DNA from: Bryobacteraceae bacterium
GTDB lineage: Bacteria > Acidobacteriota > Terriglobia > Bryobacterales > Bryobacteraceae
Direction: 5' to 3'
Length of the DNA stretch: 64,000 nt
NCBI GenBank assembly: GCA_049698695.1
Contig: JBAVYH010000216.1
Location: 6,992-70,991 of the forward strand
Made by a program: the position numbers and the translations under genes. Below the pieces are notes generated by a model. The model made no database searches. It saw nothing but the letters and a program-made list of their open reading frames with translations, and was not told the DNA's origin. Of this stretch, positions 10,156-18,006 are shown in pieces (within the stretch, counting starts at the first letter, position 1; each line of letters opens with the position of its first letter).

Positions 10156-11616
10156 CTACCGGCTCGTATTCCGATAATCCAGCGGCGGCTTCTGATCCAG
10201 CGGGATCTTCGATTCGTACTTCACGCCCGCCATCCGCTTGGCGAAGTCTGCCTTGGCGGCGGCCAGCAGTGCCGGCTCCGTGAACAAGTCGTCCGCCGTA
10301 ACCGACAGCACGTTGGCAGCCAGTACCATTCCGTCCTGTCCAATCGCCATCCCGCTGGCTGCGGTGGCGTACCAACTGTGCGCCGGCGTTCCCGGCACCC
10401 AGGTGGCGGCGGTGATGCCGATGGTCGGCACGTTCCAGCTCACGTCGCCCACGTCCGTCGATGCACCGCCGCCTTCCCCAAGTTGGCGATCGAGCGGCTG
10501 CACTAGGCGCTCGCTGCCCAGTTTGGCCGTCGTTCCCGCGGGCAACAGCGGAAACAGCTTCTGGGCAAAGGCCTGCTCGGCCGGCGTGTACGTCAGTCCG
10601 CCGATTTCGGTGAAGTTGCGGTACATGCGTTCACTGAGCGGCGCGTTGTTGACGATGTTCGAATCGCTGCTGACAATCCGAACATCCACCGTCGTCTCCG
10701 TGGCCATCGCCGCGCCGTGGGCGCATTTCAGAATGCGCTCCCAGATGCCGCTCAGCACCGTCATCGAGGGATGGCGCGCGTACAGAAACAATTCGGCGTC
10801 ATCGGGAACGATGTTGGGCGCGGCGCCTCCCTTGGTCACGATGTAATGGATGCGCGTCGCGCTGGGCACGTGCTCGCGCAGAAACTCCACCGCGGTGGCC
10901 ATAATCATCACGCCGTCCAGCGCCGAGCGGCCCTTCTCGGGCGCCGCCGCCGCGTGCGATGCCAGACCGTGAAATTCGAATTTCGCCGTGATCACGGCTA
11001 GCATGCCGTCGCCGGTAGTCACCGTGTTGGAATCGCCCGGATGCCAGTGCAAAACCGCATCCACGTCGCGGAACAGCCCGGCGCGGACCATGTACACTTT
11101 GCCCGAACCGCCCTCCTCCGCCGGAGTGCCGTAATACCGCACCGTGCCGGGCAGGTGATGCGCGGCGAGATAATCCTTGATCGAGACGGCAGCCAGCGCA
11201 CCGCCGGCGCCGAGCAGGTTATGCCCGCAGCCGTGGCCCGGCGCGCCGGCAGTGAGCGGCTTGCGCTCCGGCGCGGCGTCCTGCGAGAGCCCAGGCAGCG
11301 CATCGAATTCGCCCAGAATTCCGATTACCGGCTTGCCCTGTCCCCAACTGGCAACGAATGCCGTGGGGATCTCCGCCACCCCTGCCTTCACGTCGAAGCC
11401 CGCCGCGGCCAGCGTCTCCTGAAGCAACGCTGAGCTCTTCTTTTCCTGATATCCCATCTCCGCGAATTCCCACACTTTCCGCGAGACATCCCGGTAGGTC
11501 GGTGCGTTAGTTTCCACCAGACGGATCACTTCGCTGTGAGCCGCTGAGATATCCGCCGCCAGCGCCGCAAATGGCGCCACCGCACCAAGAACAAGAACAG
11601 CCAGTTTCGATCGCAT
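10156..11616 (-). CDS. M20 family amidohydrolase (AbgB-like), secreted
   Basis: Signal peptide, HGCGHN metal-binding motif, PAEEGGSGK and the overall M20/M40 dimerisation-domain layout. Confidence 0.75.
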   Translation of the reverse strand: MRSKLAVLVLGAVAPFAALAADISAAHSEVIRLVETNAPTYRDVSRKVWEFAEMGYQEKKSSALLQETLAAAGFDVKAGVAEIPTAFVASWGQGKPVIGILGEFDALPGLSQDAAPERKPLTAGAPGHGCGHNLLGAGGALAAVSIKDYLAAHHLPGTVRYYGTPAEEGGSGKVYMVRAGLFRDVDAVLHWHPGDSNTVTTGDGMLAVITAKFEFHGLASHAAAAPEKGRSALDGVMIMATAVEFLREHVPSATRIHYIVTKGGAAPNIVPDDAELFLYARHPSMTVLSGIWERILKCAHGAAMATETTVDVRIVSSDSNIVNNAPLSERMYRNFTEIGGLTYTPAEQAFAQKLFPLLPAGTTAKLGSERLVQPLDRQLGEGGGASTDVGDVSWNVPTIGITAATWVPGTPAHSWYATAASGMAIGQDGMVLAANVLSVTADDLFTEPALLAAAKADFAKRMAGVKYESKIPLDQKPPLDYRNTSR

Positions 11617-11771
11617 ACTCGGATACGGTACGCGGCGGGACGGCGGCTGTCAAGCCGTAGGTGGGGCATGCTTTAGCTTGCCCGGAACAGGAGGCGCTTG
11701 CGCCGCTCCCGATTTAAGAGGAGAGCCGGGCGCCCTCGCGAGATCGAGCCGCGAAGTGTTAGACTCCAAGC

Positions 11772-11984
11772 ATGGGCCGAGCTGAGGAGATCGAGGCCGC
11801 CATCGACGGTCTGTCCCCGGAAGAATATCGGCGCGTCGCCGAGTGGTTTCGCGTCCGGGAGCAGGAGCGTTGGGATCACCAGTTGGATGCCGACTCCTCG
11901 GCCGGCAAGCTCGATTTCCTCTTTGATGAAGCGGAAAGCGAGTCCGCGAAGGGCCTTCTTCGCGAGTGGCCGCCGCCAAAGTGA
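11772..11984 (+). CDS. Putative type II antitoxin (small acidic addiction-module protein)
   Basis: 70-aa acidic protein. Its TGA overlaps the GTG of the downstream RelE/ParE-like ORF (GTGA). Confidence 0.55.
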   Translation: MGRAEEIEAAIDGLSPEEYRRVAEWFRVREQERWDHQLDADSSAGKLDFLFDEAESESAKGLLREWPPPK

Positions 11985-12246
11985 GATCCGTCGCTACTCG
12001 ACGGTTCTGGAGGCTATTCCAGGCACGGCCACTTGAGATTCAACGTCTTGCCACTAAGAACTATCATCTGTGGCGACGAGACCCGCACCATCCCCGCTCC
12101 GTTTCCGGCGCTTGCAGGGAAGCGAAGACCGGTTTAGCATCCGCGTCGGAGATCACTACCGAGCCTTGGGCAAGCTAACCGGCGAGAAAATGACCTGGGT
12201 CTGGATCGGCACCCACTCAGATTATGACCGGATGACAGGCTCTTGA
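11981..12246 (+). pseudogene. RelE/ParE-superfamily toxin gene interrupted by a frameshift
   Basis: The N-terminal frame reads VRSVATRRFWRLFQARPLEIQRLATKNYHLWRRDPHHP. The frame ending at 12246 then reads PLRFRRLQGSEDRFSIRVGDHYRALGKLTGEKMTWVWIGTHSDYDRM. Together these form a complete toxin-like sequence. The frames switch near 12089-12097. Confidence 0.65.
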
Positions 12247-12512
12247 GTTTGAAGAGCAGGCTTCGACTCCCCGCACATGCCAGAGGAAACATCCGGCTCC
12301 TGCGATTGCGAGATCCTGTACAACGTTCCTGAGGAAAGCCGCCTTAAATCGGAGTACTGGCATTGGCGCAGGAAGCAAGCCGGGTGAGTCATGTCTCCGT
12401 CACGCGGATGACTAGGTGCGCCATCCCGCGCTCCCGCCCTCAACTGTTGGATAATGGAATTAGAGTGACTTGGGTGATAGCAGCCGTGCCGACTCGCAAT
12501 GAGTGAGGCTGG

Positions 12513-13145
12513 ATGATCAAGTTTCTGGGCTTCTGGATTTCCTTCGGTCTGCTCGCGTCTTCGGGCAGAGTGATCACATTCGATCAGGCGGCAGTGGGGC
12601 ATGTCCCCGCAGGCTGGACCGTGGCCATGACGCACAACGGTGCCGAACCGCGCTGGGAGGTCCGCAAGGATAATTCCGCACCCAACCCTCCCTATGTGCT
12701 GGCCCAGGTTTCCGCCGACCATCACGTCGACCGCTGCCCGCTGGCCATTTTCGATGGCGTGAACCTGCGCGACTGCGACGTGAGCGTGCGCATCAAACCG
12801 GTCTCAGGGCTGCAGGACCAGGCGGGCGGCGTGGTCTGGCGCTATCGCGATCCCAACAACTACTACCTGGCGCGTGCCAACGCCATCACCAAGAACGTGG
12901 CCATTTACAAAGTGCGGGACGGCGAGCGGCTGCAGATCGCCACCGCCGTGCCCCACGACATCGAACCCAATACCTGGAGCATTCTCAAAGTCTCGGTACG
13001 CGGCTCCCGCTTCCAGGTCTACATCAACCATCGCCGCATCCTGCAGGCCGAAGACAAGACCTTCAGCGGCCCCGGCCGCGTCGGCCTGTGGACGGTCGGC
13101 GATTCCGTCACCTACTTCGACGATTTCCGCGTGTACCCAAAGTAG
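12513..13145 (+). CDS. Secreted concanavalin/LamG-fold protein (DUF1080-like)
   Basis: N-terminal hydrophobic signal. Beta-rich sequence ending in GRVGLWTVGDSVTYFDDFRVY, the typical C-terminal strand pattern of DUF1080/3-keto-disaccharide-hydrolase-like domains. Confidence 0.55.
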   Translation: MIKFLGFWISFGLLASSGRVITFDQAAVGHVPAGWTVAMTHNGAEPRWEVRKDNSAPNPPYVLAQVSADHHVDRCPLAIFDGVNLRDCDVSVRIKPVSGLQDQAGGVVWRYRDPNNYYLARANAITKNVAIYKVRDGERLQIATAVPHDIEPNTWSILKVSVRGSRFQVYINHRRILQAEDKTFSGPGRVGLWTVGDSVTYFDDFRVYPK

Positions 13146-13151
13146 GGCGCT

Positions 13152-14396
13152 TTACATCCCCTTGATCGTCACGCCCACCAGCGCCAGCGTGATGCCGATC
13201 ATGAAGGCCACGGTAAGCCACGAAACCAGGTTGAACCAGCGCGGGTTCACCCATTCGTGCATCAGGTCCTTGCGGTTGATCAGTAGGATCATCGGGATGA
13301 GCACGAATGGCAGCAGCGCGCCGTTCAGCACCTGCGAGAGCAGGATCATTTTCACCAGCGGGAAGTTCGGCAGCAGAACCGCGCCGGCGCCGGCGACGAT
13401 CAATAGCGTGTAAAGGAAGTAGAAGATCGGCGCCTCGCGCAGCCTCTTATCGACGCCGCTTTCGAAGCCCAGCCCTTCGCAGACCGAATAGGCGGTCGAC
13501 AGCGGCAGGATGGAAGCAGCGAAAATCGAGGCATTGAACAGGCCGGCGCTGAACAACAGGAAAGCGTACTGGCCGAACGGCTTCAGGCCCAGCGCCGCCT
13601 CCTTGGCGTCCTGAATGTCTTTCGGGGCGACGCTGTAGATGGCTCCCGCGCAGGCCACGATGATGAAGAACGCAATCACGTCGGTCATGATGCAACCCAC
13701 CACCACTTCCACCCGTGACGCCGCGTACTCCTTGGCGGTGACGCCTTTTTCCACCACCGCCGATTGCAGATAGAACTGCATCCAGGGGGCGATAGTGGTG
13801 CCCACCATGCCGATCAGCATGTAGATGTAACCGGGCTCCAGCAGCAGCACAGGCTTCACGCTGTATATCGCCGCTTCTTTCCAGTCCGGCCTCACCAGAA
13901 ATCCGGAGATGATGTAGGACACGTACAGAACGCTGGCGAACAGAAATATTTTCTCCACGCTGCGGTAATTGCCCTTGACCACCAGAAACCACACCGCGAC
14001 TGCGGAAAGCGGCACGGAAATATAGCGGCTGACGTGAAATAGCTCGAGCGAGCTGGCGACGCCGGCGAATTCCGCCACCACGTTGCTGAAGTTCGTCACC
14101 ACCAGCAACGTCATCATGATGAACGTGATCCGCAGGCCGAATTCTTCGCGGATCAGGTCCGACAGTCCCTTGCCCGTCACCGCGCCCATGCGCGAACACA
14201 TTTCCTGGGTGATGATCAGGACCAGCGTGATGGGCAGCAGCGTCCAAAGGGGCAGGTAACCCCAACGGGCGCCGGCAGCGGAATAGGTGAAAATGCCGCC
14301 GGAATCGTTGTCCACCATCGCCGTGATGAACCCCGGCCCGATGACCGCGAAGAACACCAGAATGTGGTAGCGGAACCGGCCGAGCAGTCGCCGCAT
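13152..14396 (-). CDS. NRAMP/SLC11-family transporter with non-canonical (NRMT-like) metal site
   Basis: IGPGFITAMVDNDSGGIFTYSAAGARWGY aligns with the MntH TM1 DPGN block, with Asn replaced by Gly. VGTTIAPWMQFYLQS aligns with the TM6 GATVMPH block, with Met replaced by Ala and His by Trp. About 11 TM helices. Confidence 0.8.
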   Translation of the reverse strand: MRRLLGRFRYHILVFFAVIGPGFITAMVDNDSGGIFTYSAAGARWGYLPLWTLLPITLVLIITQEMCSRMGAVTGKGLSDLIREEFGLRITFIMMTLLVVTNFSNVVAEFAGVASSLELFHVSRYISVPLSAVAVWFLVVKGNYRSVEKIFLFASVLYVSYIISGFLVRPDWKEAAIYSVKPVLLLEPGYIYMLIGMVGTTIAPWMQFYLQSAVVEKGVTAKEYAASRVEVVVGCIMTDVIAFFIIVACAGAIYSVAPKDIQDAKEAALGLKPFGQYAFLLFSAGLFNASIFAASILPLSTAYSVCEGLGFESGVDKRLREAPIFYFLYTLLIVAGAGAVLLPNFPLVKMILLSQVLNGALLPFVLIPMILLINRKDLMHEWVNPRWFNLVSWLTVAFMIGITLALVGVTIKGM

Positions 14397-14398
14397 CC

Positions 14399-15652
14399 CT
14401 ATTTCTGCCTCAGCACGGAAATGATGTCGTCGGCGGTGATGACGCCGGCCAGCTTGCCTTCGTCGTCCACCACGGGCAACGTCAGAATGTTGTACTTGTC
14501 GAACTGCTCGGTGACGCGGTCCTGCGATTCCCCCACGTGCGCTTGAATCAGCGGGTCGCTCGCCAGCTCTTTCAGCCGCGCGCCGGCGGGCGCCACGAAC
14601 AGCCGCGCCAGCGGGATGGCGGCCACCAGCCGTTCCTGCGCATCCACCAGGAAAATCGTGTTGAGCTGCTCCAGCAGGTCTTCGTTGGCGCGCAGCGCCA
14701 CCAGCGCGTCGTCTACGGCAGCCCCTTCGGAAAGCGCCACGTACTCGGTGTTCATCATGCCGCCGGCGGTGTCTTCCTCGAACTCCAAAAGCTCCTCGAC
14801 CTCCGTCTTGGGCTCCGCCTCCATCTCACCCAGGATCTCTTCGCTGGTCTCGTCTTCCAGCTCGGAAAGAGCGTCGGCCGCCTCGTCGGGCGCCATTTCT
14901 TCGACGATGTCTGCCGCCTTCTCCGGTTCCAGCGATTCCAGAATCGCCGCCTGCATCTTGGGATCGATTTCCGTCAGCGTGTCGGCGGCCACCTCGCTGT
15001 CGATGTTTTCGAGAATCGCCCCGCGGTCGGCCGGGCCCAGTTCCTCGACGATGTCGGCCAGGTCCGCCGGGTGCAGCCCTTCCAGCCTTTGATAACCGAT
15101 GGCGAGCCGCAGCCGCCGTAGCGGATCGGATTCCACCACGTTGCAGAGATCCCACCGGATGGAGTTCGGCTGGATAGGTCCTTGCAGCCGCCGGATCCAG
15201 CTCGCCGGCATCCCGCCTTGCAGCAGGCGGCGCACCACGCTGCGCAGCCCCACGTCCACTTCAACCACGTGCACGGTGGTCCGCCCGTTCTCCTGGCGGA
15301 TCTCCATGGTGAGGTCGTTCACCCGCACCACCTTGCGGCCGGTCACGTCGATGATCTGCTGGTCCAGCAGGTCGCGGGCAATGCGCAGGATGCAATCATC
15401 CTCGTGATAGGGAACGAGCTGTTCGTCGCTGAGGAGGATTCCCGTCTCGCGGCTGATTCCGGCCACCTGGTCATAGCGCACGGTCAGCCACGCGTCGCCG
15501 CCGCCCACCAGGTAACGGTCAATCCGGGAAGCGTGATCGCGCGGAACCAGCGCAGCGTCCTTGACGCGGCCAATGCGGCTGCCCTTCAGGTCGAGCACCG
15601 GCATGCCCATCAGCTCGGTAAAGAATAGCAAATGATTCGCCATCGAAATCAC
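14399..15652 (-). CDS. Soluble PRC-barrel + MgtE N-domain + CBS-pair protein (MgtE cytosolic module without a pore domain)
   Basis: Acidic MgtE_N-type helical repeats (LHPADLADIVEELGP...AADIVEEMAPDEAADAL) are followed by two CBS motifs. The protein ends after the CBS pair with no TM helices. Its stop is 2 nt upstream of the NRAMP ATG. Confidence 0.8.
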   Translation of the reverse strand: MISMANHLLFFTELMGMPVLDLKGSRIGRVKDAALVPRDHASRIDRYLVGGGDAWLTVRYDQVAGISRETGILLSDEQLVPYHEDDCILRIARDLLDQQIIDVTGRKVVRVNDLTMEIRQENGRTTVHVVEVDVGLRSVVRRLLQGGMPASWIRRLQGPIQPNSIRWDLCNVVESDPLRRLRLAIGYQRLEGLHPADLADIVEELGPADRGAILENIDSEVAADTLTEIDPKMQAAILESLEPEKAADIVEEMAPDEAADALSELEDETSEEILGEMEAEPKTEVEELLEFEEDTAGGMMNTEYVALSEGAAVDDALVALRANEDLLEQLNTIFLVDAQERLVAAIPLARLFVAPAGARLKELASDPLIQAHVGESQDRVTEQFDKYNILTLPVVDDEGKLAGVITADDIISVLRQK

Positions 15653-15800
15653 CCGGGCGCCGTCTGCAGCCCGAGCGCGGCTTACCAGCTTCGATGACGC
15701 TCGTTGCGATGCGCTCTACACGGCTTTGGCTCTGACGCCACTCCCAATATGGCGCATCCTCGCGCGGAACTGCAAGGGGAAAAATAGGGCTCCGCAGTCA

Positions 15801-15833
15801 AGGCCGGCGAACGGCGTATCGACCCGCCGGCCT
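15801..15833 (-). terminator. Possible terminator hairpin downstream of the MFS gene
   Basis: 9-bp GC stem AGGCCGGCG/CGCCGGCCT directly after the stop codon. A T-run on the minus strand follows only ~15 nt later, so this is not a canonical intrinsic terminator. Confidence 0.3.
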
Positions 15834-15836
15834 GGT

Positions 15837-17129
15837 TCAATCCAGCTTGGCCGGCGTGTACCGGGGCGTCATCAGGTGGACGACGATGAGCGCCAGGAAG
15901 TAGGACGAGCCGCAGACCGCGAACACCGGTATGTAGCTGTGGGTCCACTCCACCACGTAGCCGGTGAATTTTTGGAACAGGGCGCCGCCGAGCGCGCCCA
16001 TCATTCCGCCAATCCCCACCACGCTCGCCACCGCCGCCTTCGGGAACAGGTCCGACACCACCGTGAACAGGTTGGCAGACCACCCCTGGTGGGCCGCCAT
16101 GGCCAGCCCCGTCAACCCCACCACCAGCCACACGTTCTTGGCAAAAGGAGCGTAGAGCACCGGCAGGACGGCCACCGCGCATACCAGCAGGGCGCTCTTG
16201 CGCGCCACGTTGAGGCTCCTGCCGCCCTTGAGCATGGCTCCGGAAAGCCAGCCGCCGCCCACGCTGCCGATGGAGGCCATGCCGAAGGCCACCGCCACCG
16301 GCCACCGGTTGGATTCAATATCCAGGTGGAACGTCTCCTGCAAATAGCCGGGCAGCCAGAAAATGTAGAACCACCAGATGGGATCGCTGAGGAACTTGGC
16401 GACGGCGAATACCCAGGTTTCCTTGCACGGCAGCAGGCGGACATAGGGGACTTGGTCGAGGCTGTCGCCAGGATCGCTCTCGATGTGCGCCAGCTCGGCA
16501 GCGGAAACCGAGCGATGCTTCTCCGGCTTGGCGTACATCAGAAGCCAGAACGCCAGCCAGATGAAGCCGGTGGCTCCGGCAGCGACGAAGGCGCCGCGCC
16601 AAGCCTGGTCCCGGCCAAGCGGCGCGGTGAAGACACCTACCAGCAGCGGCACCAGCAGCGGGACCGCCATGGTGCCGATGTTGGCGCCGGAATTAAAAAT
16701 ACCGGTCGCCAGCGCCCGCTCGCCCCTGGGAAACCATTCCGCCACGGTCTTGATGCAGGCGGGAAAGTTGGCCGCTTCTCCCAACCCAAGAAAGAACATG
16801 GCGATGCCGAATGTCAGCACCGAACTGGCGGCGCCGGGAGACATGGCAGCGACGCTCCACAGCACGATAGCGATAGCAAGCCCTTTGCGGGTGCCCACCC
16901 AGTCCGTAAACCAGCCCGCGCCCACGAATGCAATCGCATAGGCAATTTGGAACGCGACCAGCACGTTCGAATACTGGATGGCGTTCCAGCCAATGACGTG
17001 CTGCAGCGTGTCCTTCAGATAACCGAGCTCGCCGCGGTCGATGTACGCGATCACCGTCGAGAAGAAAAGCAGCGCACAGATGTACCAGCGATAATGCGAC
17101 GCCGAGGGGCGAGCTTGGCCAGGTGGCAT
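15837..17129 (-). CDS. MFS transporter (anion:cation symporter / hexuronate-type)
   Basis: 12-TM layout. The N-terminal YRWYICALLFFSTVIAYIDRG and DWVGTRKG motifs are typical of ACS-family MFS. Confidence 0.75.
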   Translation of the reverse strand: MPPGQARPSASHYRWYICALLFFSTVIAYIDRGELGYLKDTLQHVIGWNAIQYSNVLVAFQIAYAIAFVGAGWFTDWVGTRKGLAIAIVLWSVAAMSPGAASSVLTFGIAMFFLGLGEAANFPACIKTVAEWFPRGERALATGIFNSGANIGTMAVPLLVPLLVGVFTAPLGRDQAWRGAFVAAGATGFIWLAFWLLMYAKPEKHRSVSAAELAHIESDPGDSLDQVPYVRLLPCKETWVFAVAKFLSDPIWWFYIFWLPGYLQETFHLDIESNRWPVAVAFGMASIGSVGGGWLSGAMLKGGRSLNVARKSALLVCAVAVLPVLYAPFAKNVWLVVGLTGLAMAAHQGWSANLFTVVSDLFPKAAVASVVGIGGMMGALGGALFQKFTGYVVEWTHSYIPVFAVCGSSYFLALIVVHLMTPRYTPAKLD

Positions 17130-17187
17130 AAAGCTCTGATTATAGCCCCCACCGACGACGGCGCAGGTCCGGGCCGGCGCCGGCCCA

Positions 17188-18006
17188 TCAACCCAGGAGC
17201 GAGAAATTCACCAGCTCGATGGAATGCCGCTCAAGGGCCTGCCGTGCCTCAGGGGCGATCAGCGCTCGAAGCTCCCGCTCGCGGCTCTCCTTGAGGCGGG
17301 TGGGCGCGTTGCGCAGCGCATCGCCGCAATATCCCGGATGGCACATCAACTCGGTGGATCCTTCGGGCAGCGCGGCAGCCAGCGCCGCCAGTTCGCCCGA
17401 ATCCAGGCGGCCCGTCATCCGGAAGCCGGCGAAATGATCGACGGTGCGGCAGTCGTACGCCGCCAGCACGCGCTCAAAACGGCCTCGCAACAAACCCAGC
17501 GCGCCGCTCGCCAGGCGCGTCAGGCGCGGCACGCCGCCCAGCCCGTGCATCGGAAAATCGAACGGCCGGCGCACCCATTGGATGCCGAAATCTCGCGCCA
17601 CGCGTGCCACCGCCTCCAGCACCGGCGGCGCCAGATGCGTGTGCTTGTGAGTGTCGAGGTGCGTGGGCCGGATGCCGGCCGCAACCGTGCGCCGCGTCTG
17701 CGCCGCCAGTTCGTCATAGAGCCGGATCTCGCGGCGCGCCAGCGCTCGCAAGAGTCGCACCACCGTGGACGGAAACGGCCTCCCCGTCACCAGTGAGCGG
17801 CCGCCGATCAGCACCAGGTGGCAGCCCACATCGAGCGCCGGCGTGTCGCGCGCCAGCCGCACGGCATCGTCAAACGCGTCGCCATTGGCCATCAATGTGG
17901 CCGCCGTCAGGATGCCCCGGCGGTGCGCCTCCACAATGCCCCGGTTGACGTCCGGCGTGAATCCGAAGTCGTCCGCGTTCACCACCAGTTGCCGGCGCGC
18001 GCTCAA
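17188..18006 (-). CDS. ChbG/HpnK (YdjC) family carbohydrate deacetylase
   Basis: LVVNADDFGFTPDVNRGI and HLDTHKHTH motifs. TTG start overlaps the mlaD stop (TTGA). Confidence 0.75.
   Translation of the reverse strand: MSARRQLVVNADDFGFTPDVNRGIVEAHRRGILTAATLMANGDAFDDAVRLARDTPALDVGCHLVLIGGRSLVTGRPFPSTVVRLLRALARREIRLYDELAAQTRRTVAAGIRPTHLDTHKHTHLAPPVLEAVARVARDFGIQWVRRPFDFPMHGLGGVPRLTRLASGALGLLRGRFERVLAAYDCRTVDHFAGFRMTGRLDSGELAALAAALPEGSTELMCHPGYCGDALRNAPTRLKESRERELRALIAPEARQALERHSIELVNFSLLG

Follow-up and report, generated by a model that had tools for sequence, protein, structure and literature searches.

A carrier that lets Mg2+ run uncoupled down the membrane potential needs a brake, and the obvious candidate for that brake has been known since 2014. 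How the candidate might act on a transporter of unrelated fold is the question raised by two genes in the DNA analysed here, a stretch of 64,000 nucleotides (hereafter the window) from a Bryobacteraceae bacterium (GenBank assembly GCA_049698695.1, contig JBAVYH010000216.1, positions 6,992 to 70,991 of the forward strand). Judged by sequence, the two genes are an operon that joins an importer of the NRAMP-related magnesium transporter (NRMT) clade of the SLC11/NRAMP family (414 residues; 13152..14396, (-)) to a soluble, pore-less partner homologous to the sensor domain of the Mg2+ channel MgtE. The partner gene, a 'MgtE-like fragment' of 417 residues with the domain order PRC-PRC-MgtE_N-CBS (14399..15652, (-)), comes first in the direction of transcription. 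Its stop codon (TAG, 14399-14401) is separated from the transporter ATG (14394-14396) by two nucleotides (14397..14398, (-)), exactly the spacing given in the preliminary description of this DNA, and translational coupling across this spacer is probable. The partner reading frame starts with GTG, with an alternative ATG at 15643, and the gene is single-copy in its genome. We think it probable, though well short of settled, that the two genes make up an Mg2+ uptake module in which the partner, from the cytosol, acts as an Mg2+-dependent brake on an NRMT importer that is itself uncoupled.

The identity of the transporter was assessed by profile searches, comparison with solved structures and phylogeny. 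The protein matches the Pfam Nramp profile (PF01566) with E = 1.8e-90 over profile positions 2-356 of 357, while its score against the NCBIfam MntH profile, 124 bits, falls below the cut-off of 430. Its best solved relative is EleNRMT (7qia; E = 1.2e-102), with MntH structures at about 1e-24 and a plant aluminium transporter at 8e-10, and in a pairwise alignment it is 44% identical to EleNRMT. EleNRMT (PDB 7QIA, 7QIC, 7QJI, 7QJJ) mediates uncoupled transport of Mg2+ and Mn2+ with no H+ coupling, and the roles of its site residues have been described (Ramanadane et al. 2022, PMC8806188). All seven of these probed residues, D55, G58, E133, T224, A227, W229 and Q379, are identical in the window transporter, where they correspond to D31, G34, E109, T200, A203, W205 and Q355; T224 is the residue critical for Mg2+ in EleNRMT (PMC8806188). 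The restructuring of the binding site is likewise present. In the first transmembrane helix (TM1) the canonical NRAMP motif D-P-G-N is replaced by D31-S-G-G34 (14295..14306, (-)), with the change of Asn to Gly at G34, and in TM6 the canonical G-A-T-V-M-P-H is replaced by G199-T-T-I-A-P-W205 (13782..13802, (-)), with the changes of Ala to Thr at T200 and Met to Ala at A203. The two histidines of helix alpha-6b, which belong to the proton pathway, have given way to residues unable to accept protons: at the first, W205 is the counterpart of W229 in EleNRMT, and at the second the window protein has Leu where EleNRMT has Asn.

The preliminary description had read these substitutions as an NRMT-type signature, which is borne out both by the residue matches to EleNRMT and by a maximum-likelihood tree of 68 sequences, comprising 50%-identity representatives, transporters from related loci, EleNRMT, DraNramp and the paralogues from the same genome. 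In this tree the query lies inside a 66-member clade with EleNRMT that has a Shimodaira-Hasegawa-like approximate likelihood ratio (SH-aLRT) of 100, and long branches lead to DraNramp and to the genome's own MntH. Because the transporter groups with EleNRMT, the opposite outcome, a protein that clusters with MntH in spite of its substitutions, does not apply. The motifs D-x-G-G and G-T-T-x-x-P-W/Y occur in nearly all members of the clade, and the canonical MntH of the same genome, on contig C57, has DPGN and GATVMPHN, providing a within-genome control for DSGG and GTTIAPW. Compared with canonical MntH/NRAMP proteins, which are Mn2+/Fe2+-H+ symporters (e.g. DraNramp), the transporter thus shares the SLC11 fold and the TM1 aspartate but differs in both metal-site motifs, and the long branch between the two groups is fully supported. 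Taken together, the sequence comparisons identify the transporter as an NRMT-clade SLC11 protein.

The upstream gene had been described as encoding a PRC barrel, an MgtE N-domain and a CBS pair but no pore domain, and profile searches gave the same picture. The whole protein scored 28.7 bits with Pfam PRC (cut-off 21.2, over a short stretch), E = 1.1e-26 with MgtE_N and E = 1.2e-11 with CBS. Against the NCBIfam mgtE profile TIGR00400 it reached 142.6 bits (cut-off 232.75) and aligned with positions 27-253 of 450 only, indicating that the protein has no pore; a Pfam search of the partner likewise gave no match to the pore domain PF01769. The profile matches of both proteins are too strong to be fortuitous. 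In an alignment with Thermus thermophilus MgtE, the cytosolic domain of the channel is matched by partner residues 188-415 (E = 2.8e-33). An AlphaFold2 model built from a 55-sequence alignment has a mean predicted local distance difference test score (pLDDT) of 88.9 and a predicted template modelling score (pTM) of 0.70, and Foldseek matches its last 230 residues to cytosolic domains of MgtE (E ~1e-19; target TM-score 0.84, with the Mg2+-bound structure 2yvy). This part comprises the MgtE_N helical domain (residues 188-294; 14771..15091, (-)), which holds D224, D256 and D260, and the CBS pair (residues 296-416; 14405..14767, (-)).

The first 185 residues are predicted to form two beta-barrels. 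Barrel 1 is of PRC type and spans residues 8-74 (15431..15631, (-)), where both the Pfam PRC match and the modelled beta strands lie; barrel 2 spans residues 99-172 (15137..15358, (-)), with modelled strands at 99-133 and 164-172 and a helical insert at 136-157. A Pfam PRC search with the segment of the second barrel alone (99-172) found no match. The PRC assignment is clearer in orthologues, with scores of 35.8 and 45.4 bits: the one from Eggerthellaceae (locus L107) reaches 45 bits in two stretches, and a distant acidobacterial one (L087) covers profile positions 3-76 of 78. The second barrel is the best-conserved part of the N-terminal half: in its region seven residues do not vary (D97, K107, V109, V111, D113, R141, R142) and three more hardly do (D102, G105, W167).

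To map the Mg2+ sites, the ligands reported for MgtE (PMC5882242) were transferred by alignment, with the numbering verified through I28, I84, I190 and I242 of that paper. The ligands of Mg4 (MgtE D91 and D247; partner D256 and D409) and of Mg6 (D95; D260) are kept, and that of Mg7 (E59; D224) is kept as an acidic residue. The plug-helix residues E258 and D259, which provide Mg2 and Mg3, have no counterpart, as the partner ends just before them. Of 68 members of the partner family, 67 have D260, 59 have an acidic residue at position 224 and 57 have Asp or Glu at position 409. The residues of MgtE that contact ATP (PMC5529423), Y170, R187, D188, N203 and F227, correspond to T332, A349, R350, S365 and I389, at positions that are unconserved across the partner family. 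The partner is therefore best described, from its sequence, as a stand-alone homologue of the MgtE sensor that stands outside the MgtE channel family, has lost the ATP input and has gained two barrels. Set beside T. thermophilus MgtE (PDB 2YVX, 2ZY9, 2YVY, 5X9G), it has a homologous N domain and CBS pair with equivalents of Mg4, Mg6 and Mg7, but lacks the transmembrane pore, the plug helix, the Mg2 and Mg3 sites, the Mg5 ligands and the ATP contacts, carries two extra N-terminal beta-barrels, and would have as its target, in trans, a carrier of the unrelated LeuT fold.

We surveyed how constant the pairing is in 301 evenly drawn Acidobacteriota genomes, taking E <= 1e-100 as the cut-off for an NRMT orthologue. 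An orthologue was found in 63 genomes, and a full-length partner in exactly the same 63 and in 0 of the other 238 (Fisher's exact p = 1.5e-66). The co-occurrence survey suggested in the preliminary description therefore speaks for a strongly conserved pair, and the possibility that the pairing is peculiar to this locus falls away. The 62 pair-bearing genomes besides our own span 37 genera. In 33 of them the genes are adjacent on the same strand, partner then transporter; in one they are adjacent and convergent, in 13 they lie 0.7-5.6 kb apart on the same strand, and in one they lie about 5 kb apart and are divergent. In reference genomes we compared 80 loci, every one of them acidobacterial by its sequence. 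The partner is present in 50, always upstream and on the same strand, and it abuts the transporter in 17 of 17 Bryobacterales loci for which upstream sequence was available (tblastn alignment ends -3 to 56 nucleotides apart). No conserved flanking genes were found around the pair in the compared loci, so that the conserved unit is the pair itself. In seven cases (L007, L008, L012, L013, L018, L066 and G269) partner and transporter lie in the same reading frame with a single stop codon and 0-4 codons between them; this frequency is close to the chance expectation of roughly one third, and no read-through is implied.

The pairing also extends beyond close relatives. A search with the partner alone gave at least 8000 clusters, and adjacent pairs number in the thousands. 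A narrow-alignment search for loci returned Acidobacteriota only, apart from a few probably mis-binned metagenome-assembled genomes (MAGs), and a cross-phylum check was therefore made through the relatives of EleNRMT. This revealed that in Eggerthellaceae a relative 91% identical to EleNRMT is preceded, four nucleotides away, by a 450-residue PRC + MgtE_N + CBS gene whose product aligns over its full length with the window partner (31% identity, E = 1e-61). A distant second subfamily has the reversed order, transporter then partner, with transporters 33-38% and partners 27-30% identical to those of the window. Its loci are L087-L094 (genomes G080, G278, G029, G140, G263, G092, G167 and G207), and in their partners the equivalent of MgtE D91 is lost (Ala or Pro) and those of D95 and E59 are mostly kept.

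This pattern bears on whether the partner touches the transporter at all. It could be a cytosolic Mg2+ buffer or chaperone, or could signal to another target, for instance through its PRC barrels, and be merely co-expressed with the carrier. Some proteins of RNA metabolism have PRC barrels, and in other proteins such barrels bind ribosomal or RNA-processing partners. Such an independent role would also suit the 14 of 62 genomes in which the two genes are unlinked and the lack of any natural partner-transporter fusion among the 150 best 50%-identity representatives (longest, 546 residues), and a metal-chaperone role was raised by Shin et al. (PMC4072509). We nevertheless consider it very unlikely, given that the survey contains no partner-only and no transporter-only genome, that the pairing persists across phyla and in two diverged subfamilies whose gene orders differ, and that the structural modelling described below suggests a defined arrangement of the two proteins.

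Two further relatives of the transporter are encoded in the same genome. The second NRMT-like paralogue (contig C67:62159-63502, (-); 34-36% identical) has the motifs DNDAGA and GTTIAPW, contains an in-frame TGA and has no partner gene adjoining it; because its affinities lie with the subfamily of reversed gene order, this is probably a gene in decay that has lost its own partner. The third NRAMP-related paralogue (contig C62:48537-49949, (+)) has DDDPSG and GTTISPY and belongs to a separate, well-supported subclade, and 8-13 kb downstream of it are two genes for P-type ATPases (C62:57516-59744 and 62952-64850). The canonical MntH (contig C57:117138-119045, (+)) appears, on inspection by eye, to be fused at its C-terminus to some 150 further residues resembling a universal stress protein domain.

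Which ion the pair serves was approached through the other transporters of its hosts. The genome that harbours the window is 100% complete, and it has no MgtE pore domain (PF01769) anywhere, no CorA above cut-off and no P-type ATPase that reaches the MgtA cut-off (best, 362 versus 610.75 bits), which leaves the NRMT-clade protein as its sole recognisable Mg2+ importer. Since a canonical MntH is present, Mn2+ uptake is already covered. Across the 301 genomes, an MgtE pore was found in 8 of the 63 that carry the pair versus 177 of the 238 others (p = 2.5e-19), and both CorA and an MgtE pore are lacking in 26 of the 63, our own included; the pair seems to replace the usual Mg2+ channels in many Acidobacteria. 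In addition, the pair of one uncultured acidobacterium (MAG RBC058) is immediately preceded by an M-box, a Mg2+ riboswitch (RF00380; 115 bits, E = 1e-24; L066:3438-3622, (+)), an element that a subset of NRMT genes carry upstream and that does not define the clade. A different RNA, Acido-Lenti-1 (RF01687; 38.8 bits, barely over its cut-off), was seen once, about 200 nucleotides upstream of the partner in an Acidobacteriaceae MAG (L026:3335-3384, (+)).

These observations have to be set against the earlier experimental work on the family. Shin et al. (2014, PLoS Genet 10:e1004429, PMC4072509), who named NrmT, reported that most NrmT genes adjoin a gene for an MgtE cytoplasmic domain and speculated that the same feedback regulation applies, so that the pairing and the feedback idea, for which the preliminary description knew of no precedent, had both been published. 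Among their nrmT operons is the Acidobacterium capsulatum pair Acp2976/Acp2977, which has the same two families in the same order and comes from the same phylum; the window holds a Bryobacterales orthologue, and the Acidobacteriaceae transporters that we compared are about 60% identical to it. When this pair was tested in Bacillus subtilis, in the sole published experiment on an acidobacterial pair, Acp2977 fully rescued a Mn2+-uptake mutant (mntH/mntABCD) and rescued a Mg2+ mutant partially, at millimolar Mg2+ only, co-expression of Acp2976 had no effect on rescue, and the authors concluded that Acp2977 is probably a Mn2+ transporter (PMC4072509). In the same study NrmT from Clostridium acetobutylicum worked without a partner (PMC4072509).

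Following that conclusion, the pair could be a system for the uptake of Mn2+ or of a broader range of divalent metals, with a partner that senses Mn2+ or some other signal, as Shin et al. suggested for A. capsulatum. Beyond the rescue data, EleNRMT binds Mn2+ (Kd ~100 uM) more tightly than Mg2+ (Kd ~400 uM), and the window, like the A. capsulatum pair, has no M-box. We regard a primary role in Mn2+ uptake as unlikely, however, since EleNRMT transports Mg2+ as well as Mn2+, at sub-millimolar affinity and uncoupled from H+, so that rescue of a Mn2+ mutant is expected from any NRMT and is compatible with a role in Mg2+ uptake. A genome that already has a canonical MntH and lacks CorA, an MgtE pore and an MgtA-type pump needs some other importer for Mg2+, the equivalent of the Mg2+-critical T224 is conserved, and the near-exclusion of MgtE and the M-box ahead of an acidobacterial orthologue point the same way. 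On the strength of the genome content, the near-exclusion of MgtE and the M-box at L066, and despite the A. capsulatum result, we infer that Mg2+ is the physiological substrate of the window transporter, which by analogy with EleNRMT would carry it without H+ coupling.

The brake that we propose is motivated by the carrier itself, since an uncoupled, membrane-potential-driven carrier of divalent cations would overload an unrestrained cell. The enlarged, methionine-free site of the NRMT would accept largely hydrated Mg2+ (and Mn2+) and would let the membrane potential drive the ion inwards, uncoupled from protons. As cytosolic Mg2+ rises, the partner would bind it at the retained interface sites between its N and CBS domains and compact in the manner of the MgtE cytosolic domain. 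The compacted partner would then dock on the cytoplasmic face of the carrier and inhibit it, probably through the conserved PRC barrels, of which the second is the likeliest docking surface. The pair would amount to an 'MgtE in two pieces' whose transport part has a different fold. For this scheme we infer three things, namely that the partner binds Mg2+, that it contacts the transporter and that its regulation is inhibitory in sign.

A structural model was used to examine the second of these points. The pair at L007, whose genes are in frame, was translated through its single TGA into a pseudo-fusion of 833 residues, purely as a modelling device that carries no claim of biological read-through, and modelled with an alignment of 9 paired rows plus unpaired rows. 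The model has a pLDDT of 83.3, a pTM of 0.73 and a disordered linker at residues 418-438; for two independently oriented halves we would estimate a pTM of about 0.5. This hints that the modelled halves are placed confidently relative to each other.

The third point, the sign of regulation, separates the proposed brake from a partner that acts on the transporter as an activator, assembly factor or stabiliser, for instance at low Mg2+. The perfect co-occurrence, which holds even where the genes are unlinked, would suit a partner that is indispensable wherever the transporter exists, the A. capsulatum transporter gave only weak Mg2+ rescue when alone, and sequence does not reveal whether regulation is positive or negative. 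Against a positive role, co-expression of Acp2976 made rescue no better, neither the NrmT of C. acetobutylicum nor purified EleNRMT needs a partner to transport Mg2+, and the homologous domain of MgtE closes its channel when Mg2+ is bound (PMC5882242). We therefore judge an activating partner improbable, to about the same degree as the Mn2+ alternative, and the activity of the C. acetobutylicum NrmT in the absence of its partner fits a negative regulator.

Several observations nonetheless weigh against a Mg2+ module with an inhibitory partner. One is the behaviour of Acp2977 and Acp2976 in B. subtilis, together with the conclusion that the authors drew from it. Within the partner, the Mg5 ligands of MgtE, D226 and D250, are replaced by N388 and S412, and D256, one of the two Mg4 ligands, is kept in only 45 of the 68 family members. 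The statistics of co-occurrence are uncorrected for phylogeny, and the unlinked genomes and the want of natural fusions have been mentioned above. Of 41 related loci scanned for an M-box (L007-L086, L107), 40 have none, nor has the window, and an Rfam scan of window positions 11000-18000 gave no match at E <= 1. The pTM of the pseudo-fusion is a weak indicator, as it comes with neither coordinates nor a predicted aligned error and with a cross-chain depth of 9 paired rows.

Expression of the operon was considered from its leader. Approximately 100 nucleotides upstream of the partner start lies the promoter-like element TTGCAG-N18-CATATT (15746..15775, (-)). The same layout, TTGCNN-N17/18-CATA(G/T)T, is found upstream of the partner in nearly all Bryobacterales loci compared, suggesting that the element acts as a promoter. 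A strict sigma-70 scan called no promoter, and a terminator scan gave matches at chance level. Between this element and the gene is a conserved leader box, TGTAGAGCGCA (15710..15720, (-)), written TGTAGAGCGC(A) in its cross-locus form, which occurs in seven loci with long leaders, as exact copies at the same relative position in the window, L008, L009, L012 and L184 and as variants in L021 and L027; in the 5.6-Mb genome TGTAGAGCGCA occurs only twice. The GAGCGC of the box can pair with a GCGCTC 32-45 nucleotides downstream. An alignment of the leader RNAs (MAFFT and RNAalifold) gave four invariant pairs with no covariation, and the single-sequence fold had a z-score of -1.13. Scanning metagenomes for the leader pattern returned 120 stretches, one of which is a true partner-transporter locus (L184). 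The leader contains no acidic mini-ORF of the MDDDP type; its sole small open reading frame, MRHIGSGVRAKAV, overlaps the conserved -10-like element CATATT.

On the other side of the operon, a convergent reading frame of 210 residues (12513-13145, (+)) has a signal-peptide-like N-terminus and weak matches, at E ~1e-3 and below cut-off, to 3-keto-disaccharide hydrolase and galactocerebrosidase lectin domains. It is not kept beside the operon in relatives.

With respect to earlier work, the locus adds no new kind of system, and the surrounding survey sharpens the question of how the sensor acts. EleNRMT was studied alone, in a paper that makes no mention of a partner (PMC8806188). Shin et al. (PMC4072509) mention neither the tandem PRC-barrel region of about 185 residues nor a genome-wide co-occurrence or the near-exclusion of MgtE, and our literature search found no paper that characterises the partner and none that combines 'PRC-barrel' with 'MgtE'. 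What is new here is the co-occurrence across 301 genomes, the near-exclusion of MgtE, the mapping of the Mg2+ and ATP sites of the partner, the M-box at L066 and the PRC-bearing partner in Eggerthellaceae. The interest that remains lies in the action of the sensor, the PRC barrels and the apparent replacement of MgtE in Acidobacteriota.

In its most far-reaching form, our proposal is that the partner is a detachable gating subunit, whose PRC barrels dock on the cytoplasmic face of the NRMT and close the carrier at high cytosolic Mg2+, and that much of the Acidobacteriota, with abundant Bryobacterales and Terriglobales of soils among them, relies on the two-protein unit, in place of CorA, MgtE or MgtA, as its housekeeping and sometimes sole importer of Mg2+. 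We hold this to be a serious possibility that stops a little short of being probable; if it is true, the MgtE sensor would be a portable module able to work on an unrelated transporter fold. Sensor and carrier are never apart in the 301 genomes surveyed, they largely replace MgtE there, and in many complete genomes, our own included, they are the sole recognisable Mg2+ importer. The pair is thus a good model for a sensor domain that regulates a transporter in trans, and it bears on how dominant soil bacteria acquire Mg2+.

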